A stretch of 23,341 bases of DNA, the filler included, from an uncultured virus (IMG/VR IMGVR_UViG_2061766007_000905) (Duplodnaviria; Heunggongvirae; Uroviricota; Caudoviricetes). It is 3 parts of one record of this genome, joined end to end, with 100 filler letters (N's around TTAATTAATTAA, not from the genome) between each part and the next. Parts side by side here need not be neighbours in the genome. Positions count along the whole stretch, not along the records: positions 1 to 14,949 come from IMGVR_UViG_2061766007_000905; 2 more parts are not named here. One strand, given 5' to 3'. Under the pieces are notes generated by a model that was not told the DNA's origin, made no database searches, and saw nothing but the letters and a program-made list of their open reading frames with translations. Below are positions 13,372 through 22,330 of this stretch, in pieces (position 1 is the stretch's first letter; each line of letters starts with the position of its first letter). Position numbers and translations under genes: made by a program.

Positions 13372-13396
13372 NNNNNNNNNNTTTATTTCAGACTAC

Positions 13397-13552
13397 TTAT
13401 GCAACTTCAATAATTATTTTCCCACTAGGACTTTTGTAAATATCTAAAACTTCGCCATCATTGCCACCCTGGTCTATTGTCTTTAATTCACTGTCACCAT
13501 AACCTTCGGCAATATATTTAGTTATTTCTTTTTCTAATTCTGATAATGTCAT
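13397..13552 (-). CDS. small hypothetical protein, 51 aa (MTLSELEKEI...)
   Basis: Translated by hand; AAGGA RBS and promoter upstream. Confidence 0.6.
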   Translation of the reverse strand: MTLSELEKEITKYIAEGYGDSELKTIDQGGNDGEVLDIYKSPSGKIIIEVA

Positions 13553-13580
13553 AATTAATATTCCTTATACTTTATTTTAT

Positions 13581-13612
13581 AATATAGAAAAAGGTTGACA
13601 AATGTCAACCCT
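13581..13612 (-). promoter_or_regulatory. palindromic terminator (end of tRNA operon) and promoter
   Basis: GGTTGACA-TT-TGTCAACC-TTTTT; TTGACA-16-TATATT. Confidence 0.6.
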
Positions 13613-13622
13613 TTTATTTTAG

Positions 13623-13694
13623 TCCGCCTGCCGAGATTTGAACCCGAACCAACTCCGTCACAGGGAGGTATGCTACCAATTACACCACAGAGGG
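13623..13694 (-). tRNA. tRNA-His(GTG), atypical (no G-1, A73)
   Basis: Cloverleaf, loop CT-GTG-AC. Confidence 0.7.
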
Positions 13695-13776
13695 GATAAA
13701 ATTTAGAGCGTCTNNNNNNNNNNNNNNNNNNNNNNNNNNNNNNNNNNNNNNNNNNNNNNNNNNNNNNNNNNNNNNN

Positions 13777-13848
13777 GCCACTACCTGGATTCGAACCAGG
13801 ACCCGCTGATTAAGAGTCAGCTCGACTAAGCCGTTATCATATAGAGGC
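13777..13848 (-). tRNA. tRNA-Lys(CTT)
   Basis: GCTGA-CT-CTT-AA-TCAGC; T arm CCTGG TTCGAAT CCAGG. Confidence 0.85.
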
Positions 13849-13856
13849 AAATGTAG

Positions 13857-13929
13857 TACCCCAGGAAGGACTCGAACCTTCAACCCACGGATTAAGAGTC
13901 CGCTGCGCTACCAATTGCGCCACTGGGGC
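13857..13929 (-). tRNA. tRNA-Lys(CTT)
   Basis: GCGGA-CT-CTT-AA-TCCGT; full cloverleaf. Confidence 0.9.
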
Positions 13930-13936
13930 ATTTTAG

Positions 13937-14007
13937 AGCGTCTATCCGGGTTCGAACCGGAGCTTCAACCATGGCAAGGTCGTTTGCTACCACTACAACA
14001 TAGACGC
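13937..14007 (-). tRNA. tRNA-Gly(GCC)
   Basis: CGACC-TT-GCC-AT-GGTTG; GCG start, U73. Confidence 0.9.
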
Positions 14008-14011
14008 ATAA

Positions 14012-14110
14012 AAACTATAAGCCAACGGATTTCTACCAGATAACCTCTTGTCTTTGCAAGCGCTCTTTGGAATTGTACACATTCCTGCGATTGAGCTACG
14101 CTTATAGTTT
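14012..14110 (-). ncRNA. tRNA-like RNA with extended acceptor stem and hairpin inserted in D loop
   Basis: AAACTATAAGC/GCTTATAGTTT closing stem, TAGCTC..GAGC D stem enclosing GGAAT/ATTCC, CTTG/CAAG arm, degenerate T arm. Confidence 0.5.
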
Positions 14111-14112
14111 AG

Positions 14113-14185
14113 AGCGGCATATCGGATTCGAACCGATGACCTTCTCCATGGCAAGGAGACGTTCTACCAACTGAACTAATGCCGC
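14113..14185 (-). tRNA. tRNA-Gly(GCC)
   Basis: TCTCC-TT-GCC-AT-GGAGA; full cloverleaf. Confidence 0.92.
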
Positions 14186-14293
14186 ATAGGCGAAGGTTTT
14201 TGATTTTGGACAGAAGCTACCTACAAACTCCAGGAACCTAATTTTTTATCTTCCCGGTGTCGGACACGAGAAATTAGTAAAACNNNNNNNNNN

Positions 14294-14369
14294 TCAGACA
14301 GGGATCGAACCTGCATTTTCAGCTCCAGTTACGATTACAAGATTCGTAGTCTTGCTCGGCTACTGATGT
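14294..14369 (-). ncRNA. non-canonical tRNA-Arg(ACG)-like RNA, 3' end in gap
   Basis: CAAGA-CT-ACG-AA-TCTTG arm, GCAGG TTCGATC CCTGT T arm, no normal D arm, long variable region. Confidence 0.55.
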
Positions 14370-14376
14370 ATGTTAG

Positions 14377-14450
14377 CGATCATGGTGGGATTCGAACCCA
14401 CGAAAACTGGTTAGACAGACCAGCGCCCTGGACCACTAGGCGACACGACC
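14377..14450 (-). tRNA. tRNA-Asp(GTC)
   Basis: CTGGT-CT-GTC-TA-ACCAG; G73. Confidence 0.85.
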
Positions 14451-14457
14451 AAATTAG

Positions 14458-14531
14458 CGAGCATGGCGAGGTTCGAACTCGCGTATGTTGGTTAGACAGA
14501 CCAATGTGTTAGACCACTTCACCACACGCCC
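14458..14531 (-). tRNA. tRNA-Asp(GTC)
   Basis: TTGGT-CT-GTC-TA-ACCAA; G73. Confidence 0.85.
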
Positions 14532-14536
14532 AAATT

Positions 14537-14567
14537 AAAAAAGATTCCTGTGAGTTGCACAGGAATC
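14537..14567 (-). terminator. attenuator terminator before tRNA-Asp
   Basis: GATTCCTGTG-CAACT-CACAGGAATC-TTTTTT. Confidence 0.8.
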
Positions 14568-14592
14568 ATTCTTAAAACTTTACAGTTAAAAA

Positions 14593-14649
14593 CTAGATGA
14601 CCCTGTGCTTGTGTCGATCCTTATCATGCTTACCGAAACCTCGTCCGTC
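14593..14649 (-). CDS. leader peptide, 5' partial: DGRGFGKHDKDRHKHRVI*
   Basis: Frame shared with 14878-14949, with synonymous differences GGT/GGC and CGA/CGT. Confidence 0.7.
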   Translation of the reverse strand, partial: DGRGFGKHDKDRHKHRVI

Positions 14650-14661
14650 NNNNNNNNNNCG

Positions 14662-14730
14662 AGAATAGCGAGAAGTATATTTAACGGATTTACAGTCTGT
14701 ATTTTTAATAGGAACTTCTTATGCTATTTT
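14662..14730 (-). ncRNA. rod-like RNA carrying a Tyr(GTA) anticodon stem-loop and GTTCCTATT motif
   Basis: AATAGC/GCTATT and AGAAGT/ACTTCT stems around ACAGA-CT-GTA-AA-TCCGT. Confidence 0.5.
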
Positions 14731-14738
14731 GTTTGTAG

Positions 14739-14813
14739 CGATCCCAGTGAGATTCGAACTCACGAAAAACTGGTTAGACAGACCAGCGCCTTAGACCACT
14801 AGGCAATGAGACC
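14739..14813 (-). tRNA. tRNA-Asp(GTC)
   Basis: CTGGT-CT-GTC-TA-ACCAG; G73. Confidence 0.85.
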
Positions 14814-14816
14814 AAA

Positions 14817-14851
14817 TAAAAAATGATTCCCGTTTTTACACAGGAATCATT
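14817..14851 (-). terminator. attenuator terminator before tRNA-Asp
   Basis: AATGATTCCTG..CGGGAATCATT followed by T run. Confidence 0.8.
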
Positions 14852-14877
14852 CTTCAAAAACTTTATACAGTTTAATA

Positions 14878-14949
14878 CTAGATGACCCTGTGTAGGTAAC
14901 GATCCTTATCATGCTTGCCGAAACCTCGTCCGTCGCGGCGAGTCTTGCA
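14878..14949 (-). CDS. leader peptide, 5' partial: CKTRRDGRGFGKHDKDRYLHRVI*
   Basis: Translated by hand; start lost at contig end. Confidence 0.7.
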   Translation of the reverse strand, partial: CKTRRDGRGFGKHDKDRYLHRVI

Positions 14950-14993
14950 NNNNNNNNNNNNNNNNNNNNNNNNNNNNNNNNNNNNNNNNNNNN

Positions 14994-15005
14994 TTAATTA
15001 ATTAA
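14994..15005. other. artificial contig linker
   Basis: TTAATTAATTAA embedded in N run (stops in all six frames). Confidence 0.9.
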
Positions 15006-15056
15006 NNNNNNNNNNNNNNNNNNNNNNNNNNNNNNNNNNNNNNNNNNNNTATTTAG

Positions 15057-15129
15057 TACTCCGTCCCAGATTCGAACTGGGGTTAACCGATAGAAAGTCG
15101 GTTGGCTTGAACCACTGGCCGAACGGAGC
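15057..15129 (-). tRNA. tRNA-Glu(TTC)
   Basis: ACCGA-CT-TTC-TA-TCGGT; identical to 19167-19239. Confidence 0.85.
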
Positions 15130-15133
15130 ATAT

Positions 15134-15166
15134 AAAAGAAAAGTTCCTGTGTTTGTGCACAGGAAC
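15134..15166 (-). terminator. attenuator terminator before tRNA-Glu
   Basis: GTTCCTGTG-CACAAA-CACAGGAAC-TTTTCTTTT. Confidence 0.8.
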
Positions 15167-15194
15167 CGTAAATTCTCAAATACTCGGTAATTAC

Positions 15195-15293
15195 CTATGC
15201 ACGTAGCCTTGACATAAATTCGGCAAATTCGCGACCTGCGAATGCGGCGCGTTCTGCTGCAAAAAATTCATGTTCAAACTTAGTCATAGTCAT
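15195..15293 (-). CDS. leader peptide MTMTKFEHEFFAAERAAFAGREFAEFMSRLRA
   Basis: 32 codons, 18 are E/F/A; AAAGGT RBS; stop lies within antiterminator GTGCATAGG. Confidence 0.8.
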   Translation of the reverse strand: MTMTKFEHEFFAAERAAFAGREFAEFMSRLRA

Positions 15294-15453
15294 TTTGTTA
15301 CCTTTTATATTATATATAAAAATTTTTTCCTGTTTNNNNNNNNNNNNNNNNNNNNNNNNNNNNNNNNNNNNNNNNNNNNNNNNNNNNNNNNNNNNNNNNN
15401 NNNNNNNNNNNNNNNNNNNNNNNNNNNNNNNNNNNNNNNNNNNNNNNNNNNNN

Positions 15454-15501
15454 CGTTCTTACTTCAATTTATTGATCGTGTCTAGCAGACATTCATTTAA
15501 C
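15454..15501 (-). ncRNA. 5' part of structured ncRNA homologous to 19648-19782
   Basis: GTTAAATGAATGT..CTAG..ACGATCAATAAAT shared; TTTACA-17-TATATT promoter upstream. Confidence 0.55.
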
Positions 15502-15579
15502 GATATATAATATAGTAAATTATTACCTGTTTGTAAACCCCTAAAAATAAAATTATTTTTTCTGCTACCCTCAATCTAC

Positions 15580-15587
15580 TATAAATA
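15580..15587 (+). promoter_or_regulatory. T4-type late promoter
   Basis: TATAAATA upstream of AATAGGAG RBS. Confidence 0.65.
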
Positions 15588-15605
15588 ATAAAAATAGGAG
15601 AATAA

Positions 15606-16034
15606 ATGAATTTAAATGAAGCAAAACAATTACTTAAAAAATCTGGATATGTTCTTCTTAAAGAAAATACAGATTTTACTATAGATGACTTTAATATTTC
15701 AAGCGACTATGAAGGGACATCTGATTATGAACAAGATGATACTTTACCACATCCGCTTGTTTTCGTTAATCCGCCTTCTATCGAAGCCCATGCTTTTATT
15801 AAAAAATATTTCATCGACACTCAGAGTTTAATTGAGGGAACTGAAATTGAAGGTGTATATGATGACGATGATGATTTAATTGAATTTGTATTTCCAGAAA
15901 CAGATTTCTGCGACCATGAAATGAGACAAGAGTATGAAGAACTTGTCAGGTCTTTAATCGAGAAAGCATTTGAAATTGAAAATCAAAGTAACAATGACGT
16001 CATTTTAGGTGACGAAGAAATGTTTGACGTTTAA
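15606..16034 (+). CDS. acidic hypothetical late protein with MNLNEA leader
   Basis: ORF track, AGGAG RBS. Confidence 0.75.
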   Translation: MNLNEAKQLLKKSGYVLLKENTDFTIDDFNISSDYEGTSDYEQDDTLPHPLVFVNPPSIEAHAFIKKYFIDTQSLIEGTEIEGVYDDDDDLIEFVFPETDFCDHEMRQEYEELVRSLIEKAFEIENQSNNDVILGDEEMFDV

Positions 16035-16045
16035 TAGGAGAATTT

Positions 16046-16489
16046 ATGAATTTAAATGAAGCACTAAAAACACTTAAAACCGCAGGTTTTGAACTTCTCA
16101 AAGAAGATGCCGAAGGTAATAATTTTTTATGTTATGGCATTTATGGTGATAGAGCACATAATGACCCAGAAACAGCACAAATTTATGCACTAACTAAAAA
16201 TAAACGAGAAGTTATAGATGCAATATGTGATTGGTTCAGTGCAGGACCAGATGATATTTTCTTCTGTGGTGTTACTATTGTAAATGACAGAGATGCAGAA
16301 AAACTTAATCGTTTAGGAAAAGAAGATCTTGCAGATACCCCTGCATGTCAACAGTTAATGCAATTCGTACCAAAATGTGCATTAGAATATTCTGGTGATG
16401 CTGCCATGGATTTATATGACGAAGATGACGAAGAAGGTTCTATGCGAAAAGTTCGCCGAATGGTAACACGAGCTATAAATGCACTTTAA
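16046..16489 (+). CDS. acidic hypothetical late protein with MNLNEA leader
   Basis: ORF track, AGGAG RBS; same N-terminus as preceding gene. Confidence 0.75.
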   Translation: MNLNEALKTLKTAGFELLKEDAEGNNFLCYGIYGDRAHNDPETAQIYALTKNKREVIDAICDWFSAGPDDIFFCGVTIVNDRDAEKLNRLGKEDLADTPACQQLMQFVPKCALEYSGDAAMDLYDEDDEEGSMRKVRRMVTRAINAL

Positions 16490-16497
16490 ATAAAAAT

Positions 16498-16526
16498 AAA
16501 AACCAGGTTAAATACCTGGTTTTTTT
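16498..16526. terminator. bidirectional terminator
   Basis: AAAAACCAGGT-TAAAT-ACCTGGTTTTTTT. Confidence 0.75.
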
Positions 16527-17113
16527 AAATATGACCGAAATTTTTAATCCATTTAACTTTTATTTTAGAATTATCTTTTAATTTCAATTCTCTTTCCCCA
16601 GTATGTTCTAATGGGTCAGTCCAAATTGCATAATGTAAAATTGTGCTAGGCCAATGAACATTATTGGGATTGTTTTCTGCACAAACAATATACTTATTTG
16701 TATTTCCTGTTTTATTATATGCCCAAGTTTTGGCCATATCTAAATCATAAGTCCAACTATGACCAAGATTATCCAAATCTATATCGTCAGCAGAATTAAC
16801 GAACAATGCCCTATAAATTTCTTTGACGTCTGTATTTTTGCAGAAATCTCTATAAATGTAATCCAGATGTTCTTTTAAGAAATCTACACAATAATCAAAC
16901 CATGCTTTTACATCAGGATCAGTCAAACTTGCTTTGATTGCCTTTTTGTATTTAAATTTAATTTTGTGCTTTGCAAAAAACTTTTTCTTAAGCATCATAT
17001 ATTCAGAAAGCTCTGCAGAAGTGCATTCGAATATTTGATACATATACTCATCATTTACCGTTCCATTTAACAATTTATATAACGGATTAGCTGGATATGT
17101 TTCTTTAAACTGT
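16525..17113 (-). CDS. hypothetical protein with possible ADP-ribosyltransferase (R-S-E) motifs, 5' end in gap
   Basis: Frame open to the gap; IYRAL, GHSWT, GEREL. Confidence 0.5.
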
Positions 17114-17395
17114 NNNNNNNNNNNNNNNNNNNNNNNNNNNNNNNNNNNNNNNNNNNNNNNNNNNNNNNNNNNNNNNNNNNNNNNNNNNNNNNNNNNNNNN
17201 NNNNNNNNNNNNNNNNNNNNNNNNNAAATCTAGTTGGACTATTAAGAACATATTTCTGTTCTAATTTTATACCGCCAAATTTTATTGCAATAGTAATACC
17301 TTTAAAAAATGCATCTGGTTCATCACTAACTTTCATTTCACAAACATTAAATATATCTGTCATGTTTGGCTGAATGACAGTAAGCNNNNNNNNNN

Positions 17396-18149
17396 ACCTG
17401 TTGGGTTACAACCGAGAACTAATCCACCATTCTTTTCGCCAATCTTTACAGTTGTTCCTTTACGATATTCTGTATTCCATGTATCATTGCAATCACCACT
17501 TACAGAATAGGAATTATTACCTGCTCCCTTACCAGGAATATCGAAATCTTCAGCTTCAATTACTTCACCAAGATTAAATGCTGTTCCCTTAAATGGCTTC
17601 TGCGGTTCAGGTTCAACAATCGTTACACCATCACCAGTTGGAAGACCAGTAGAATTTACGCCTTTATTATCCTTCAAATAAGACTTCAACCATGTCATTG
17701 CTGCTCTATCTTGGTTATTCTTGATAATACCAGATGTTCCGCTATTCCAAGTTGCACCATAAATATAACCCCAAAGAGTAATACCAGCAATATGTTCATT
17801 TTCCATAAAGTAAGAAATCTGTTCCTGATAGCACTGCTTCTGAATATTATCATCATCTGTGAAAATATCGTATTCACTAATGAACATTGGCATCTGAGTC
17901 TTATTCCAAATTTCTTCAATTACAGACTTCAATGTATTAATATTTAAGCAAGAACCACCGCCGCCAGTTCCGCCGTTTCCACCACCTTGGCTCATCATAT
18001 CATGAGCTTGAAGACCATAAGCATCAACTGGAGCACCTTGCTGTTTCAATTTATTAATTAAGTCAATTCCTTCGTTCTTTTGCCATTGAACTGTATTATA
18101 ATCATTATAAATCAAAATTGCATCCGGCCAACGTTCTCTTGCCATCTTA
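17396..18149 (-). CDS. GH10 endo-xylanase C-terminal half plus start of a CBM, both ends in gaps
   Basis: LIYNDYN, DAYGLQAH, PMFISEYD (nucleophile Glu), GITLWGY, then IEAEDFD CBM6-like start. Confidence 0.85.
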
Positions 18150-18161
18150 AANNNNNNNNNN

Positions 18162-18695
18162 CTTTCTATTTTTACTTATTTTACATTTTCTTGCGATAGA
18201 CCAAAGTTCATTACTATTAAATACATTTCTTCCTTCAACCCAAAAATCTTCTACAGGTTTTTCTTTAAACTTTTTACTTTCGCCTGTATTCCTATTTGTA
18301 TACCATTTAGTACCAAATTGTGAATTAAGATTTCCTGATTGTTTTATACTTGTTAATTCTCCAACAGTTTTTATAAATTCCATACGTAAAGCTTCATATG
18401 CTCGAGAATTTATATAACGACACTTTTCTTTGGTTGATTGCCCTTGCATTCGCCAAAGTGCACATAACATTTTATGTCTTTCAACAGTTCCTTTATTATA
18501 CATTTTAACTAGTAACCAATGACAGATAAAATGTTCACGTGCCGTTAATTTAACAAGGTTTTCTTTATCGTTTGTGCCTCCTAAAGACTTTGGTTGAATA
18601 TGATGTTTTTCATAATAACCTACAAGTCTGTTTCCATTTTCAGTTTCCTTTTTTGCATTTTCAATTATCTTATAATATATAGCTTTGTAATTCAT
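18162..18695 (-). CDS. HNH homing endonuclease, 3' end in gap
   Basis: YYEKHHIQPKSLGGTNDKENLVKLTAREHFICHWLL. Confidence 0.85.
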
Positions 18696-18755
18696 ATATT
18701 ATATATAATTCTTCGTTTTCCGAACTCGTAATTTCATTATTGCGAATTCTTTTCG

Positions 18756-18826
18756 TGGACCTACGGAGAGTCGAACTCCGGCGAACAGAATGCAAATCTG
18801 CAATGCTACCATTACATCATAAGCCC
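18756..18826 (-). tRNA. tRNA-Ala(TGC)
   Basis: GCAGA-TT-TGC-AT-TCTGT; G3:U70, A73. Confidence 0.88.
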
Positions 18827-18837
18827 ATAATGTTTAG

Positions 18838-18911
18838 TGCCTCCCCTCAGAATCGGACTGAGCTACTCCGGGCTTCAACCGGGTCCAATCACCAGGTTTG
18901 GATTGAAAGGC
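18838..18911 (-). tRNA. tRNA-Phe(GAA), atypical
   Basis: CCGG-TT-GAA-GC-CCGG; divergent D arm and T loop TCCGATT. Confidence 0.65.
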
Positions 18912-18920
18912 ATATTTTAG

Positions 18921-18994
18921 TGGACCTGACGGGGAACGATCCCGTAACCTTTAGCTTGCAAAGCTACTGCGCTACCAAATTGCGCCACAAGCCC
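18921..18994 (-). tRNA. tRNA-Ala(TGC)
   Basis: TAGC-TT-TGC-AA-GCTA; G3:U70, A73. Confidence 0.88.
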
Positions 18995-19002
18995 ATATTT
19001 AG

Positions 19003-19075
19003 CGGGACCGGTAGGAATCGAACCTACGACGCTTGGCTCTTCAGGCCAACGCTCTACCTACTGAGCTACAGTCCC
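19003..19075 (-). tRNA. tRNA-Phe(GAA)
   Basis: TTGGC-CT-GAA-GA-GCCAA; full cloverleaf. Confidence 0.92.
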
Positions 19076-19084
19076 AAATTTTCG

Positions 19085-19156
19085 TGGATACATATCGGAT
19101 TCGAACCGATGCCCTCTGAGTGCAAATCAGAGATACTCCCATTATACTAATGACCC
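19085..19156 (-). tRNA. tRNA-Ala(TGC)
   Basis: TCTGA-TT-TGC-AC-TCAGA; G3:U70, bulged acceptor stem. Confidence 0.8.
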
Positions 19157-19166
19157 AAATTTTTAG

Positions 19167-19239
19167 TACTCCGTCCCAGATTCGAACTGGGGTTAACCGA
19201 TAGAAAGTCGGTTGGCTTGAACCACTGGCCGAACGGAGC
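19167..19239 (-). tRNA. tRNA-Glu(TTC)
   Basis: ACCGA-CT-TTC-TA-TCGGT. Confidence 0.85.
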
Positions 19240-19253
19240 AAATATTGTTTTTT

Positions 19254-19284
19254 AAGTGGTGTCTCCACTACTGGACTACCAGCA
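19254..19284 (-). pseudogene. remnant 5' half of a tRNA
   Basis: GCTGG-TA-GTCCAGTAGTGGAGAC-ACCAC-TT resembles acceptor 5' strand and D arm, then stops. Confidence 0.4.
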
Positions 19285-19290
19285 AAGTAT

Positions 19291-19324
19291 AAAAGAAAAG
19301 TTCCTGCGCATTGTGCACAGGAAC
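19291..19324 (-). terminator. attenuator terminator before the Glu/Ala/Phe tRNA operon
   Basis: GTTCCTGTGCA-CAA-TGCGCAGGAAC-TTTTCTTTT. Confidence 0.82.
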
Positions 19325-19350
19325 CGTTTTTTCAAACTTATTTAGGTTAA

Positions 19351-19464
19351 CTACCTAATCCTATGCACTGTATCTGAACAAAATGCTTCAAACGCTGCAG
19401 CTGCGAATTCAGCTGCGGCACGTTCTGCTGCAAAAAATTCATGTTCAAATACGTTCATAGTCAT
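19351..19464 (-). CDS. leader peptide MTMNVFEHEFFAAERAAAEFAAAAFEAFCSDTVHRIR
   Basis: 37 codons, 21 of codons 6-28 are E/F/A; AAAGGT RBS. Confidence 0.82.
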   Translation of the reverse strand: MTMNVFEHEFFAAERAAAEFAAAAFEAFCSDTVHRIR

Positions 19465-19526
19465 TTTTGTTACCTTTATATTATATATAAAAAATTTTTC
19501 CTGTTTTTTGTTATTTTACGTTGTTA

Positions 19527-19555
19527 AATATAGTAAAAAGTTTTTGGTTTGTCAA
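19527..19555 (-). promoter_or_regulatory. sigma70 promoter of leader/tRNA operon
   Basis: TTGACA-17-TATATT. Confidence 0.7.
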
Positions 19556-19579
19556 CCCCTTTTTAAAATATTTTTTTAG

Positions 19580-19643
19580 TGGGAAAGCAGGACTTTAACC
19601 TACAACATGCACGATGGCCGCTCTGACATTGAGCTATTTCCCA
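19580..19643 (-). ncRNA. tRNA-like RNA lacking a proper anticodon arm
   Basis: GGGAAA/TTTCCC acceptor, GCTC/GAGC D stem, GTAGG/CCTGC T stem; only 16 nt between D and T arms. Confidence 0.55.
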
Positions 19644-19647
19644 TGAT

Positions 19648-19782
19648 ATTAAAATAAAATGTTCTGAAGGAATCCCGATTCTCCACCTTCATGTAAGACC
19701 GTTCTTGCCGGTAATTGGCAAGCTGACCGCAACGCCGTCCTTACGTCTATTTATTGATCGTTCTAGCGAACATTCATTTAAC
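19648..19782 (-). ncRNA. unrecognised ~135 nt structured RNA
   Basis: Own TTGACA-17-TATATT promoter (19790-19818); closing stem AAATGAATGTTC/GAACATTTTATTT; inner stems GTAAGGAC/GTCTTAC, CTTGCC/GGCAAG, TGAAGG/CCTTCA. Confidence 0.6.
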
Positions 19783-19840
19783 AAGATTAAATATAGTAAA
19801 AAGTTTTTGATTTGTCAACCTTTTTTAAAATATTTTTTAG

Positions 19841-19952
19841 TGGGGAAAGCAGGATTCGAACCTACGACGCACGCCTTGAGATGAAAAATAGGAACGTTAT
19901 ATGCATTACTACGTAACGTAATACCGTTGCTCTACCACTGAGCTATTTCCCC
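19841..19952 (-). ncRNA. tRNA-like RNA with anticodon arm replaced by a ~55 nt insert
   Basis: Canonical acceptor GGGGAAA/TTTCCCC, D and T arms; insert contains GTATTAC/GTAATGC hairpin and GTTCCTATT. Confidence 0.65.
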
Positions 19953-19956
19953 ATGT

Positions 19957-20023
19957 TGTAACACGGAATGTAATTTGCTATTTAAAAAATTAATGATTTA
20001 ATAGGAACATTCTTTGCGTTACA
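19957..20023 (-). ncRNA. rod-like small RNA with GTTCCTATT motif
   Basis: Starts at expected +1 of TTTACA-17-TATATT promoter; TGTAACGC/GTGTTACA and GAATGT/ACATTC stems. Confidence 0.5.
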
Positions 20024-20066
20024 TATTAAATATAGTAAATTATTTTTATTTTGTAAACCCTATAAT

Positions 20067-20405
20067 TTATTTTTCATATTTATCTATAACATGCTTAAGC
20101 GAATCAATAACCGCTGCCGTATCTATAGGCTTAATGCTATATTTAACAGAGTCGGAATACCAGCGAGAACGTTTTTCCAGACAGTCTATCGTATTTTCTG
20201 TACATTTTGGCTTCAGTTTTAGAAACGTTTCATATCGCTCATGTTCATCTGGTGTCTGTGTAAAGAATAGAATGCCTGTTATAATAAGTGCCAAACCCCA
20301 AATTTTCTTTACGCCCTTTATCGCAAACATAATACACAATCCCAACGTTATAAATACCGCCGTAAAAATTATAAGGCATAGCGCAAAAAAATTTATAATA
20401 ACCAT
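20067..20405 (-). CDS. membrane protein (two TM helices)
   Basis: Start moved to MVIINFFAL at 20405. Confidence 0.65.
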   Translation of the reverse strand: MVIINFFALCLIIFTAVFITLGLCIMFAIKGVKKIWGLALIITGILFFTQTPDEHERYETFLKLKPKCTENTIDCLEKRSRWYSDSVKYSIKPIDTAAVIDSLKHVIDKYEK

Positions 20406-20412
20406 ATATACC

Positions 20413-20913
20413 TTATCGTGTTTCAATCCGTTTGCATGCTGCAGCATACATCTTTTCCCAATCTGGCGTAGGCTCTTCATCAGGTTCATGTTTTTCATCC
20501 TCGCATGAACCATAAGCACATTTACATTTTGGACAATATACATTACCGTCCAACGGCATATAAGCTCTTAGATGGTCCTTATCGTCGATATAAACGGCAA
20601 AATGAATAGGGAATTCCCAATCTCCGCCTGCGAAACACCAGATAATCGATGTTCCGTCTGGAAGTTTTCCATATTTTTGGCTTTCAAAATCTTCTTCCGA
20701 ATTTTCCCAATCAAATTCGAGCTTTGACAAGTCTTTTTCTATTTGAGGATTCATGTTACTGTATGCGACACAATTATGAAGCCACTCCTGAATTACTTGT
20801 TCAGAATCAGTTTCATCCATATCCTCGTCATACCCGCCATCTTCTTTAAGCTGGTCAAGCATCTTTTCAATAATATCTGTCCTTGTACATCCTTTCTTTG
20901 CATATCTTGGCAT
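20413..20913 (-). CDS. hypothetical protein (AGGDWEFP, CPKC motifs)
   Basis: ORF track, AAGGA RBS. Confidence 0.75.
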   Translation of the reverse strand: MPRYAKKGCTRTDIIEKMLDQLKEDGGYDEDMDETDSEQVIQEWLHNCVAYSNMNPQIEKDLSKLEFDWENSEEDFESQKYGKLPDGTSIIWCFAGGDWEFPIHFAVYIDDKDHLRAYMPLDGNVYCPKCKCAYGSCEDEKHEPDEEPTPDWEKMYAAACKRIETR

Positions 20914-20924
20914 AATTATTTCCT

Positions 20925-21671
20925 TTAAATAGTCCAGACTACTACAGCCTTGAATTTTTTGTGTTTTTCCTGTTCTTGCATTTCAATTTGTTGGAAGATT
21001 TGCTTAATTCGATTGATCATGTTAAGAGAAGCGGTATACACGTCCGCACAGTCAAGACCGTCCGCAATATTGGTAAATTCAATCGGATGAGTCAAATCGA
21101 TCACATACTTATCAGTATTCGGCATCAAATAATTGGTCTTACCGATTTTACTGATATTCGAATTCAAAAAATCTTCATAACTCACATACTTATTGACATA
21201 TAAATCATAAAAATAATCATATAAGTCTATTAATACACGATAATCACGTATAACGAACGTCGTATTGAGTTTTTTCTCGTCGGTAAGGTATTTTACTAAC
21301 TCGACATTTTCTTGCTTTTTAAGATATCCTATAATCAATTTACGGATAACCAGTTTTGTCCACAAATGCAATGCCTTCTGGTTATGCTCGTAAGCCGGAA
21401 TAGTCTTGCCTTCATACAAAGGCAAAGAATTTGCAATCGTTGACGCCTTATAAAACGACATATCATTGGTACAGGTATATTTTTCATTGTTTTCAATGAT
21501 ATCAATGACATGTAAGAACTTGTCAAGCTTTTTACTGTCAAGAACCCAAAACTGCTCAGAAATAGAGCTGTATTCCCTTGCATCATAAACTTTAGAATTT
21601 ATATTAAACGCGAATGATTCCCTATCGCATTCGTATGTTCCAGGTTGTCGTGAAAGATTATACTTCATCAT
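20925..21671 (-). CDS. hypothetical protein
   Basis: Start moved to MMKYNLS at 21671 with GGAG RBS; upstream part of the ORF-track call overlaps a tRNA. Confidence 0.75.
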   Translation of the reverse strand: MMKYNLSRQPGTYECDRESFAFNINSKVYDAREYSSISEQFWVLDSKKLDKFLHVIDIIENNEKYTCTNDMSFYKASTIANSLPLYEGKTIPAYEHNQKALHLWTKLVIRKLIIGYLKKQENVELVKYLTDEKKLNTTFVIRDYRVLIDLYDYFYDLYVNKYVSYEDFLNSNISKIGKTNYLMPNTDKYVIDLTHPIEFTNIADGLDCADVYTASLNMINRIKQIFQQIEMQEQEKHKKFKAVVVWTI

Positions 21672-21739
21672 ATTATTCTCCAAAAGTAAGTACAATATAA
21701 AAAAAGAATTGACTTTCGTCAACCCTAGTTTTATTTTTA

Positions 21740-21812
21740 CGCCGAAAGAGTGACTCGAACACCCAACCATCGCATTACGGAAGCGCTGCGCTACCAATTA
21801 CGCCATTCCGGC
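21740..21812 (-). tRNA. tRNA-Thr(CGT), atypical (C33)
   Basis: Positional loop TC-CGT-AA, GCC acceptor start. Confidence 0.65.
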
Positions 21813-21819
21813 ATTATAG

Positions 21820-21891
21820 AGCTGGAGATAGGACTTGAACCTACAACTTGCGGATTACTAAACCGCTATTCTACCATTGAATTACTCCAGC
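21820..21891 (-). tRNA. tRNA-Thr(AGT)
   Basis: GCGGT-TT-AGT-AA-TCCGC; full cloverleaf. Confidence 0.75.
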
Positions 21892-21894
21892 AAA

Positions 21895-21965
21895 GGCGGG
21901 TCGTAACAACCTTTTGATTAGCAATCAAACGCTCTAACTTGAGCTAAATAGGAACGACCTGTGCC
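21895..21965 (-). ncRNA. T-armless tRNA-Ser(GCT)-like RNA with GTTCCTATT motif
   Basis: GGTCGT/ACGACC stem, TAGCTCAAGTTAGAGC D arm, TTTGA-TT-GCT-AA-TCAAA arm, no T arm. Confidence 0.55.
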
Positions 21966-21976
21966 AAAATTTTTAG

Positions 21977-22025
21977 TCAGAATGAGAGGTTATGATCCTC
22001 CGACCTCACCGCCCCGAACGGTGCG
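21977..22025 (-). tRNA. tRNA-Pro(CGG), 5' part in gap
   Basis: CACCG-TT-CGG-GG-CGGTG. Confidence 0.75.
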
Positions 22026-22069
22026 NNNNNNNNNNNNNNNNNNNNNNNNNNNNNNNNNNNNNNNNNNNN

Positions 22070-22081
22070 TTAATTAATTAA
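22070..22081. other. artificial contig linker
   Basis: TTAATTAATTAA embedded in N run. Confidence 0.9.
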
Positions 22082-22126
22082 NNNNNNNNNNNNNNNNNNN
22101 NNNNNNNNNNNNNNNNNNNNNNNNNT

Positions 22127-22330
22127 GGTCCGGCAGATGAAGGACTTACCAAATACGTATTGCCTAAGATTATTTCTAACGAAGCATATACCAAGACCGG
22201 AAAATTCAATTCCGGTTATCTTAGGGATGCAATAACCGAAATTTACGAAACTGAAAATATGCCGGGAATTCTTAAGTTCTGCAGAGAATTCTTGAAACCG
22301 ATTCTTGAAAGAAATTCGACAATGTGCTAG
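22127..22330 (+). CDS. 3' end of hypothetical protein
   Basis: Open frame GPADEGLTKY...RNSTMC*. Confidence 0.5.
   Translation, partial: GPADEGLTKYVLPKIISNEAYTKTGKFNSGYLRDAITEIYETENMPGILKFCREFLKPILERNSTMC

Follow-up and report, generated by a model that had tools for sequence, protein, structure and literature searches.

Leader-peptide attenuators are familiar from the amino-acid operons, where they include trpL, hisL, leuL, thrL, the ilv leaders and pheL, and the Trp, His, Leu and Thr leaders have families of their own in Rfam. In E. coli the same device is found at pheST, where the leader pheM controls an aminoacyl-tRNA synthetase. The tRNA genes of phages are usually treated as a constant addition to the tRNAs of the host, and we know of little that bears on how they are regulated. 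Here we report on a locus of a giant rumen phage in which a short leader frame and a terminator stand ahead of a tRNA operon; we read this unit, with a probability of roughly 80%, as a ribosome-mediated (leader-peptide) transcription attenuator that gates the operon.

Like the attenuators of amino-acid operons, the phage unit has a Shine-Dalgarno sequence and a short reading frame rich in regulatory codons, the predicted pairings 2:3 and 3:4 with a possible 1:2, and an intrinsic terminator before the regulated genes; like the thr and ilv leaders, it would sense several amino acids. It differs in that it would regulate tRNAs in place of biosynthetic enzymes, so that its product acts directly on the sensor, in that five or six amino acids would be sensed together through synonymous codons that fit particular anticodons, and in being phage-borne; the two share no sequence similarity, and no Rfam leader family is matched at E values up to 1. 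The pheST attenuator also applies leader-peptide attenuation to a gene of the translation apparatus, but it acts on a synthetase, senses one amino acid and belongs to a cellular gene. T-box riboswitches resemble the phage unit in reading tRNA status through an antiterminator/terminator switch, but do so by direct binding of uncharged tRNA, via a specifier codon and the T-box sequence and without translation. In Anabaena sp. PCC 7120 the repressor TrcR is reported to govern the trn operon, with its 26 tRNA genes (PMC10272220); much as we propose for the phage, this is a reserve of tRNA genes that stays silent until particular conditions activate it, although the control described there is a protein repressor at the promoter and not a codon-matched leader with a terminator. 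A literature search found no published leader-peptide attenuation of tRNA genes, and its use as a control of viral tRNA supply appears to have no earlier description.

The tRNA operon and its two leader copies

The window, by which we mean the whole stretch of 23,341 nucleotides (filler included) that was analysed, carries on its minus strand two short reading frames, each of which ends just upstream of a strong terminator and a tRNA-Asp, with genes of the types Asp, Arg(ACG)-like, Gly, Lys(CTT) and His downstream. Leader B1 (14949..14878) reads CKTRRDGRGFGKHDKDRYLHRVI*, which comprises the last 23 codons and TAG, its 5' part missing at the contig end; leader B2 (14649..14593) reads DGRGFGKHDKDRHKHRVI*, the last 18 codons and TAG, its 5' part missing at a join. 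The reading frames, the predicted hairpins and the tRNAs called by ARAGORN confirm the arrangement described in the earlier note, and the synonymous differences that it saw between the two copies (GGC/GGT and CGT/CGA) are real.

ARAGORN calls Asp(GTC) three times, Gly(GCC) and Lys(CTT) twice each and His(GTG) once, all on the minus strand. The first gene after leader B1 is a tRNA-Asp(GTC) at 14738..14813, found by both ARAGORN and Rfam, and beyond it lies a reduced tRNA-like element (14660..14727), which begins with GCATAAGAAGTTCCTAT and whose structure was judged by eye only. Leader B2 is followed by a pair of tRNA-Asp(GTC) genes called by ARAGORN (14376..14531, comprising 14457-14531 and 14376-14450) and by a tRNA-like gene of unusual form (14294..14369), which has ACG in its anticodon loop and loses its 3' end to a gap. 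Further along stand two tRNA-Gly(GCC) genes (14112-14185 and 13936-14007, spanning 13936..14185; ARAGORN and Rfam) with a conserved stretch between them (14010-14110), a tRNA-Lys(CTT) pair (13775..13929, comprising 13856-13929 and 13775-13849; ARAGORN) and the last gene of the operon, a tRNA-His(GTG) at 13622..13694 (ARAGORN), before an operon-end terminator at 13588..13615 that was found by the terminator scan. A further tRNA is predicted under a run of Ns at 13706..13776, where the 3' strand of its acceptor is visible at 13713..13706 and loose contig ends of sequencing runs X8 and X1 lie at 13777; relatives with Gly(TCC) beside His suggest that the hidden gene is probably a tRNA-Gly.

The gene set proposed in the earlier note therefore stands for Asp, Gly, Lys and His, but not in full for its Arg(ACG)-like member: neither ARAGORN nor Rfam calls the element at 14294-14369 as a tRNA, and, since a D stem is lacking beside its ACG anticodon stem-loop, it does not qualify as a canonical tRNA-Arg(ACG). 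Across four sequences its 17 pairs are 100% paired with seven compensatory changes, the acceptor, anticodon and T stems co-varying, and canonical tRNA-Arg(ACG) genes occupy the same place, between Asp and Lys or Gly, in 4 of 16 operons of this type (B operons).

As judged from sequence identity, depth and contig paths, the B1 and B2 copies are alleles of two co-assembled strains and not a genuine tandem, a possibility that the earlier note had rightly allowed. B1 is 97.6% identical to one relative (L008/L032) and B2 99% identical to another (L012/L017), and their pieces differ in DNA contig depth (449 and 36, respectively). The join of ten Ns at 14650..14659 is false, linking pieces of the two strains; in a comparison of contigs over 13383-14949, those of runs X1, X16 and X17 continue from 14660 into a second tRNA-Asp and not into leader B2, and those of X8 and X16 extend leader B1 upstream in frame (KFVVDTHDFD). 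In complete relatives and on single run contigs alike, the leader is joined to its terminator and tRNAs without a break, so that a separation of the tRNAs from the leader finds no support. Contigs from the RNA libraries of two studies span the leader, the terminator and tRNA-Asp, the form expected of read-through, although such contigs are blind to RNA ends, strand and level and may reflect DNA carry-over. Neither the B2 piece (14294-14649) nor a protein gene at 13383-13541 is covered by the RNA runs, from which no conclusion is drawn because both are 12-48 times shallower than the B1 piece in the DNA run; for the same reason the protein gene is unusable as a silent-stretch control for DNA carry-over.

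Two sister units lie on the minus strand of the window, and their leaders, unlike B1 and B2, which are cut at gaps, are complete. Unit A1 (18755..19555) comprises a promoter (19555..19527), a shared 5'UTR motif (19491..19473), a leader (19464..19351) and a terminator (19325..19299), followed by tRNA genes in the order Glu, Ala, Phe, Ala, Ala. Unit A2 (15056..15293) has the leader MTMTKFEHEFFAAERAAFAGREFAEFMSRLRA* (15293..15195), a terminator (15167..15142) and a tRNA-Glu(TTC) (15129..15056), and then reaches the contig end. Five matches to the shared 5'UTR motif stand before ordinary protein genes.

Terminators and alternative pairings

A terminator scan of positions 13400-22200 gives 13 sites, against 4.6 +/- 2.2 in shuffles. 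The predicted intrinsic terminator of B1, formed by segments 3 and 4 with a U run, lies at 14817..14856 (-20.8 kcal/mol, z -7.2) and that of B2 at 14543..14567 (-15.8 kcal/mol, z -4.9); the U runs are at about 14817 and at 14537-14542, and the terminators lie 4 and 12 nt, respectively, before tRNA-Asp. The last four codons of the leader contain segment 2, CACAGGGTCATC, at 14881..14892 in B1 and 14596..14607 in B2, as a candidate antiterminator strand, and the predicted 2:3 hairpins (-15.4 kcal/mol, z -3.0 and -13.4 kcal/mol, z -2.7, respectively) compete with the terminators. The pairing sets CACAGGGTCAT against ATGATTCCTGTG, that is, the last codons of the leader against the 5' arm of the terminator, and bears out the suggestion that the leader end can pair with a terminator strand. 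Segment 2 is also complementary to the start of the leader (AUGACU-GGUCAU), so that the first codons can pair with the last, and the complete leader is predicted to fold end to end at -28.3 kcal/mol (z -1.7) in the B1 type and -32.8 kcal/mol (z -3.3) in the B2 type. As modelled, the overlapping pairings 2:3 and 3:4, with a possible 1:2, would make up the classic attenuator arrangement.

Self-structure is less general across leaders, with only 10 of 16 beating 95% of codon-order shuffles and the Asn/Pro/Thr leaders having no excess of it. Segments 2 and 3 are nearly invariant among the 11 distinct B leader sequences, with a single variable base (A to G in L010, turning A-U into G-U) and thus no compensatory change, which speaks neither for nor against the pairing. 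A looser N-terminal codon pattern retrieves 36 loci, made up of the 15 known B loci and 21 unrelated chance matches; the B family is therefore narrow as sampled.

All 20 leaders examined have a GC-rich hairpin and a U run downstream, and in 17 of them the best upstream partner of the terminator 5' arm falls between -5 and +7 nt relative to the stop codon (it lies elsewhere in G001_0, G002_0 and the A2 leader, win_A2). Both regularities weigh against the alternative that survives best, though we consider it improbable, in which the leader is translated and the same codons are sensed, but the output is something other than intrinsic termination: stalled or passing ribosomes would alter how the precursor is processed, how stable it is or how readily Rho reaches it, and the hairpin would be only a processing or insulating signal. 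Codon matching would suit any translation-coupled sensor, and the leaders are flanked by tRNA-like elements that are possible processing signals, as that alternative would have it; a partner for the terminator arm placed at the stop codon is, however, specific to an antiterminator/terminator switch.

The leader in relatives and codon-anticodon matching

The relatives are IMG/VR jumbo-phage contigs, and in all 15 related loci the leader has a purine-rich Shine-Dalgarno sequence, an ATG and the same frame of 33 codons (MTKFVVDTHDCKTRRDGRGFGKHDKDR..HRVI), in which codons for Asp, Lys (AAG), Gly, His and Arg (CGN) abound. The full frame with both start signals is present in L008/L032, which are near-identical to B1, and in the B2-like L012/L017; together with the in-frame extension of B1 on run contigs, this places an in-frame start upstream of the truncated copies. 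Among the 11 distinct leader sequences the variable sites number 6, 6 and 12 at the first, second and third codon positions, and the stop codon varies between TAG, TGA and TAA. Most replacements stay within the amino-acid set of the operon (K/D, D/G, H/K, K/R and H/R), while others fall outside it (T/I/M, C/F/V, K/Q/M, H/Y, and L at codon 29), and the variant L010 carries one AAA Lys codon. Searches of the INPHARED phages for cultured relatives gave no match by blastn with the B region, megablast with 15600-18700 or tblastn with the 33-residue leader.

The tRNAs called by ARAGORN decode 10 of the 23 codons of leader B1 and 11 of the 18 of B2, against a background frequency of 0.165; with the Arg(ACG)-like element counted as well, the decodable codons rise to 14/23 and 13/18 (background 0.186). 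For 16 leaders that head tRNA operons in three near-complete relatives, the mean decodable fraction is 0.56 with the leader's own operon and 0.09 with other operons, and falls to 0.13 and 0.15 in the shifted frames. This loss of the match, the Shine-Dalgarno sequence, ATG and frame in 15/15 loci, the excess of variation at third positions and the varying stop codon all argue against a T-box-like RNA switch that works without translation, by direct binding of tRNAs or a protein, and in which the open frame is incidental. T-boxes do provide a precedent for reading tRNA status without translation; over 13400-22200, however, only tRNA reaches the Rfam gathering score in a search with E values up to 1, with no T-box, leader or other cis-regulatory family, and we hold such a switch to be very improbable.

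In each of the three relatives the true pairing of leaders with operons is the single best among the permutations (120, 720 and 120). The match holds at the level of amino acids (259 of 444 residues, 88 expected) and of synonymous codons (78 of 91, 46.9 expected), although the 16 leaders belong to about 6 families, so that z-scores overstate their independence. Synonymous choice follows the anticodon, AAG going with CTT and AAA with TTT, AGY with GCT and TCN with AGA/TGA; the Lys(TTT)/Arg(TCT) operon is headed by a leader with AAA and AGR codons. The Trp/Leu/Ser leader has Gln and Cys codons only where its operon has Gln and Cys tRNAs, and the Glu/Ala/Phe leader has four Val codons, against two, where its operon has Val tRNAs. 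The independent repetition of the pattern reported in the earlier note thus extends to other leader families, with specificity at the level of codons. The weight that it gave to AAG in an AT-rich genome does not hold, since AAG is not rare, accounting for 47% of the Lys codons in 128 long reading frames of the relatives, and its use alone is weak evidence. About 40% of the codons in the leader (Phe, Val, Thr, Cys, Tyr, Leu, Ile and AGG) have no tRNA in the operon to read them, and a leader is missing from some tRNA clusters. The least probable explanation of all is that the frames before tRNA clusters are ordinary small genes or arose by chance, with terminators that end upstream units and a match due to chance or base composition, for although AT-rich DNA commonly holds short frames and the 5'UTR motif also precedes protein genes, the permutation ranks and the tracking of anticodons by synonymous codons speak against chance, and the charge-reversing K/D swap against a peptide with its own function.

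A model for control of the tRNA supply

Anatomy, conservation, codon-anticodon matching and alternative hairpins, all computed, support the reading of the locus as an attenuated tRNA operon; that the leader is translated, in which direction the switch works and how it responds to the supply of tRNAs are what we infer from the attenuator model. A sigma-70-like promoter would give a transcript that begins with the 33-codon leader, whose Asp, Lys(AAG), Gly, His and Arg(CGN) codons would be served by the downstream Asp(GTC), Lys(CTT), Gly(GCC/TCC), His(GTG) and Arg(ACG). When decoding is fast, the ribosome would reach the stop codon and cover segment 2 (CACAGGGUCAU), the terminator would form and the tRNAs would not be transcribed. 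When a charged tRNA is scarce, the ribosome would stall earlier and leave segment 2 free to pair with the 5' arm of the terminator, so that RNA polymerase could continue into the tRNA genes; if the leader is not translated at all, its first codons would pair with its last and the terminator would again form. Matching codons at positions 26-30 of the leader, however, lie near enough to segment 2 that a ribosome stalled on them would mask it. With a codon-matched leader and a switchable terminator ahead of the tRNA genes, the tRNAs are probably made only during slow reading of these codons and, because the products are the very tRNAs that would relieve the stall, the unit would form a negative feedback loop on decoding capacity.

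If this model is correct, tRNA genes enter the small set of genes under leader-peptide attenuation, and an attenuator whose product is the molecule sensed would put a textbook mechanism to a new use and act as a direct homeostat of decoding capacity. It would also provide a sequence signature for spotting regulated tRNA arrays in metagenomes, and a natural reporter of how fast particular codons are translated and perhaps of attacks by the host on tRNAs. We lean towards a wider proposal, in which every tRNA operon in this clade of jumbo phages is an autonomous, codon-resolved feedback loop whose leader gauges the decoding speed of the codons that its own tRNAs read, the phage topping up only those tRNAs that are scarce; a shortage could arise when phage codon usage exceeds what the host supplies, or when certain tRNAs are cut by host defences. 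At least six such leaders, taken together, include codons for 19 of the 20 amino acids.

Leader variants and the tRNA operon

The arrangement of leader, terminator and tRNA genes in this stretch is confirmed, with three corrections, and comparative and structural evidence supports its interpretation as leader attenuation. Two short frames on the minus strand, B1 (14949..14878) and B2 (14649..14593), translate to CKTRRDGRGFGKHDKDRYLHRVI and DGRGFGKHDKDRHKHRVI, each ending at a stop codon. As the earlier note described, each is followed by a terminator and a tRNA-Asp gene: a terminator-like hairpin with a U run lies at 14856..14817 behind B1 (minus; -20.8 kcal/mol, z -7.2) and at 14567..14543 behind B2 (minus; -15.8 kcal/mol, z -4.9), and ARAGORN calls a tRNA-Asp(GTC) behind both. 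Terminator-like sites number 13 in 13400-22200, against 4.6 +/- 2.2 in shuffles. Farther downstream ARAGORN reports two more Asp(GTC) genes, two each of Gly(GCC) and Lys(CTT), and His(GTG); the terminator scan places the end of the operon at 13615..13588 (minus). All 16 ARAGORN tRNA genes of the window are on the minus strand. The window is AT-rich phage DNA, with Pfam matches to a T4-type terminase large subunit, a CCA-adding enzyme (PolyA_pol head domain), a radical SAM protein, a GH10 fragment and an HNH endonuclease. It is a scaffold rather than a finished sequence, interrupted by 28 N runs and containing two N-flanked ttaattaattaa linkers (14994-15005 and 22070-22081).

At 14369..14294 the Arg(ACG)-like gene shows its ACG anticodon in a perfect stem-loop but lacks a D stem; it is truncated by a gap, and neither ARAGORN nor Rfam calls it. 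Every one of the 16 B operons (the window and 15 related loci) includes an ACG-anticodon gene, canonical in 4 and atypical in 12. When the 4 distinct atypical copies are aligned, the acceptor, anticodon and T stems keep every one of their 17 pairs, 7 of them with changes on both sides, a level reached by 0 of 500 shuffles. This constant presence and the co-varying stems identify the element, on comparative grounds, as a real, conserved tRNA-like gene. Elsewhere in the operon, a 63-N run at 13706-13776 conceals a whole tRNA: contigs of the DNA run X1 and the metatranscriptome library X8 continue from 13777 into a tRNA 5' end, with the matching 3' acceptor strand showing at 13713..13706. Going by relatives, this is probably Gly(TCC). 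No tool calls a tRNA in 14010-14110 or 14186-14283 (minus), the latter with same-place counterparts in relatives; both may be further atypical tRNA-like RNAs.

The starts of B1 and B2 are lost in gaps. A degenerate pattern of conserved leader codons retrieved 15 loci from IMG/VR, on contigs of 5.4 to 424 kb, and all 15 supply the in-frame start that the earlier note had sought upstream: a 33-codon frame, MTKFVVDTHDCKTRRDGRGFGKHDKDR..HRVI, preceded by a purine-rich Shine-Dalgarno site. Behind it in every case stand Asp, Asp, the ACG gene, Lys(CTT), Gly(GCC), Gly(TCC) and His(GTG), the order differing slightly from locus to locus. Contigs of X8 and of a second metatranscriptome library, X16, prolong B1 itself upstream in frame by codons for KFVVDTHDFD. 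Public runs containing the neighbouring stretch are labelled as bovine or sheep gut metagenomes, and the contigs of four such runs were compared with the window.

B1 and B2 belong to two strains, as the earlier note had cautioned they might. The B1 piece shares 97.6% identity with one relative (G001) and the B2 piece 99% with another (L012/L017); contig depth in X1 is 449 for the former and 36 for the latter; and from 14660 the contigs of X1, X16 and a further public run (X17) continue into a second tRNA-Asp, not the B2 leader. The two pieces are thus falsely joined by the 10-N run at 14650-14659. Each pattern-matching IMG/VR contig carries exactly one B leader. Metatranscriptome contigs from two studies cover 14660-14943 (X8 record 19, 356 nt; X16 record 10, 392 nt), each joining leader, terminator and tRNA-Asp on one piece, which bears out the contiguity of tRNAs and leader. 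These contigs fit the read-through form, while carrying no information on ends, strand or level and being open to DNA carry-over.

Codon matching across leader families

The tRNAs called in the window decode 10 of 23 codons in B1 and 11 of 18 in B2, rising to 14 of 23 and 13 of 18 once the ACG element is added; the background share of those codons, in 30,003 codons from 128 long ORFs of related phages, is 0.165 and 0.186 (binomial P ~1e-5 to 1e-6). The Lys codons are indeed AAG, matching the CTT anticodon, but the weight given to this choice in an AT-rich genome was misplaced, because AAG makes up 47% of Lys codons in those ORFs.

The same pattern recurs at other tRNA operons, as the earlier note had suggested from 18756-19555. 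A 5'UTR motif common to A and B leaders has 2 matches in the window (0 expected) and 19 in five large records, of which 14 stand before leader-like ORFs heading tRNA genes and 5 before ordinary protein genes without tRNAs. Three near-complete relatives (completeness 100, 98 and 100%) were then screened, across their tRNA regions, for ATG ORFs of 12-50 codons ending <=90 nt upstream of a terminator that lies <=260 nt from a tRNA. Of the resulting 23 ORFs, 7 were dropped (5 overlapping off-frame, 2 unrelated) and 16 kept as leaders, every one with a purine-rich site upstream. They form about six families: Asp/Lys/Gly/His/Arg (the B leader); Glu/Ala/Phe, plus Val in one genome (the A leaders); Trp/Leu/Ser(GCT), plus Gln and Cys in one genome (MKTLSLTLLLLSSLLLSWLLRRSLVGTK); Tyr/Met/Ser(TCN), plus Cys, Ile and Gln in one genome (MQNVHYTSFVISSNSMFGYSYYMMGYSGK); Asn/Pro/Thr (MIMLFMNTTTNPTNNNPEVLQD); and Gln/Lys(TTT)/Arg(TCT) (MLRFVKQVKQIRKQQVAVCFAMGSE). 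Some tRNA clusters have a promoter and no leader.

Under simple wobble rules (G34 pairing with C and U; C34 with G; U34 with A and G; A34 with U, C and A), the share of a leader's codons that can be decoded averages 0.56 with its own operon and 0.09 with other operons of the same genome; the same nucleotides in the other two frames give 0.13 and 0.15. The true leader-operon pairing is the sole best of 120, 720 and 120 permutations in the three genomes, a test run within single genomes and thus not inflated by leader homology. At the amino-acid level the own operon serves 259 of 444 residues (88 expected), and at the synonymous level 78 of 91 codons are those read by the operon anticodons (46.9 expected), totals that overstate independence because the leaders of the three genomes are homologous. 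Lys is AAG before Lys(CTT) and AAA before Lys(TTT); Arg is CGN before Arg(ACG) and AGR before Arg(TCT); Ser is AGY before Ser(GCT) (5/5) and TCN before Ser(AGA/TGA/GGA/CGA) (5/6 and 7/7). Leader and operon also change together: in the Trp/Leu/Ser leader, Gln and Cys codons are confined to the genome with Gln and Cys tRNAs in that operon; in the Tyr-operon leader Cys appears and Ile and Gln codons are commoner where the operon has those tRNAs; and the Glu/Ala/Phe leader has 4 Val codons instead of 2 in the genome that carries Val tRNAs. On the leaders compared, codon matching is general in this phage clade.

Among 11 distinct B leaders from the 15 loci, first and second codon positions have 6 variable sites each and third positions 12, codons 19-27 being fixed by the search pattern and hence uninformative; the stop codon may be TAG, TGA or TAA. 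Many replacements stay within the operon's amino-acid set (K/D, D/G, H/K, K/R and H/R), one a charge reversal; others fall outside it (K/Q/M at codon 3, T/I/M at 8, C/F/V at 11, H/Y at 28, L at 29). The swaps within the set fit selection for any codon of this set over a particular peptide.

A proposed attenuation switch

The pairing noted earlier between the strand before the stop codon and the terminator is reproduced by folding in both B units. Segment 2, the last four leader codons (CACAGGGUCAUC), pairs with the terminator 5' arm (segment 3) in a hairpin of -15.4 kcal/mol in B1 (z -3.0; terminator -20.8) and -13.4 in B2 (z -2.7; terminator -15.8). In the sister units A1 and A2 (minus strand, 18755..19555 and 15056..15293) antiterminator and terminator stand at -20.1 vs -18.7 and -16.4 vs -15.2 kcal/mol. 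The complete B leader is also predicted to fold end to end, with AUGACU of codons 1-2 (segment 1) pairing with GGUCAU of segment 2; the fold has -28.3 kcal/mol in the B1 type (z -1.7) and -32.8 in the B2 type (z -3.3), and the A1 leader reaches -38.8 (z -3.9). Self-structure exceeds 95% of codon-order shuffles in 10 of 16 leaders, and the Asn/Pro/Thr leaders show no excess by this measure. In 17 of 20 leaders (16 from relatives, 4 of the window) the best upstream partner of the terminator 5' arm lies -5 to +7 nt from the stop codon, so placed although sequences differ among families. In the other three, A2 of the window among them, it lies elsewhere; direct folding of A2 nevertheless yields the stop-codon hairpin. 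No compensatory change was found in segments 2 and 3 among 11 distinct B-family sequences, because these segments vary at one base only (A to G in L010, turning A-U into G-U); a looser search for more divergent B leaders gave none, its 36 loci being the 15 already found and 21 unrelated.

We give the attenuation mechanism itself a probability of about 0.8. Under the classical model, an untranslated leader would form 1:2 and 3:4, and transcription would terminate; a ribosome at the stop codon would mask segment 2, with the same outcome; a ribosome stalled farther upstream would break 1:2, freeing segment 2 to pair with segment 3 and permit read-through. If a ribosome shields some four codons beyond its A site, matched codons to about position 25 could act as sensing sites, and those at 26-30 could not. 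Against the attenuation reading, the AGG within segment 2 is not read by ACG, about 40% of leader codons have no matching tRNA in the operon, and one Lys codon of L010 is AAA.

The layout of the B unit is that familiar from leader-peptide attenuators of amino-acid operons. Unlike those, its targets are tRNA genes, its sensing would be multivalent and anticodon-specific, and its setting is a phage. Rfam at E up to 1 returned no leader family and no T-box, and thus no sequence relation to known attenuators. Among the entries returned by full-text literature searches, none describes control of tRNA genes by leader-peptide attenuation; of the regulated tRNA arrays among them, the Anabaena trn operon with its repressor TrcR (PMC10272220) comes nearest.

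Further elements around the operons

In relatives L009-L022 (L011 2302-2377 being one case) a tRNA-like gene precedes the B leader by ~130 nt; it is absent in G001. ARAGORN reports a two-base anticodon for it, and a GCAA tetraloop on a co-varying stem replaces the anticodon loop. It sits between promoter and leader, so the leader is transcribed behind it, and it may be a processing signal. The motif GCAnAnnnnGTTCCTAT occurs four times in the window against 0.05 expected (14708-14724, 19888-19904, 20001-20017 and 21948-21964, minus). By eye, it opens an element in which an outer helix is followed by a 3-nt bulge, a 6-bp helix and TCCTAT; complementary strands close the element on its 3' side, and it encloses a reduced or whole tRNA-like body. 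Rfam matches tRNA without an ARAGORN call at 19579-19643 (40.6 bits) and 19841-19952 (50.3 bits), both minus; the latter spans 112 nt and therefore holds a ~40-nt insertion, which contains the GTTCCTAT motif. A separate promoter lies at 19818..19790 (minus).

The GH10 fragment and HNH endonuclease (17360-18145 and 18147-18695, minus) directly adjoin the Glu/Ala/Phe tRNA operon, and in relatives tRNA operons are interrupted by ~830-nt stretches containing an open reading frame. A Thr(AGT)-Arg(CCG) tRNA pair occupies 21739-21891 (minus), its upstream region cut by the contig join at 22026.
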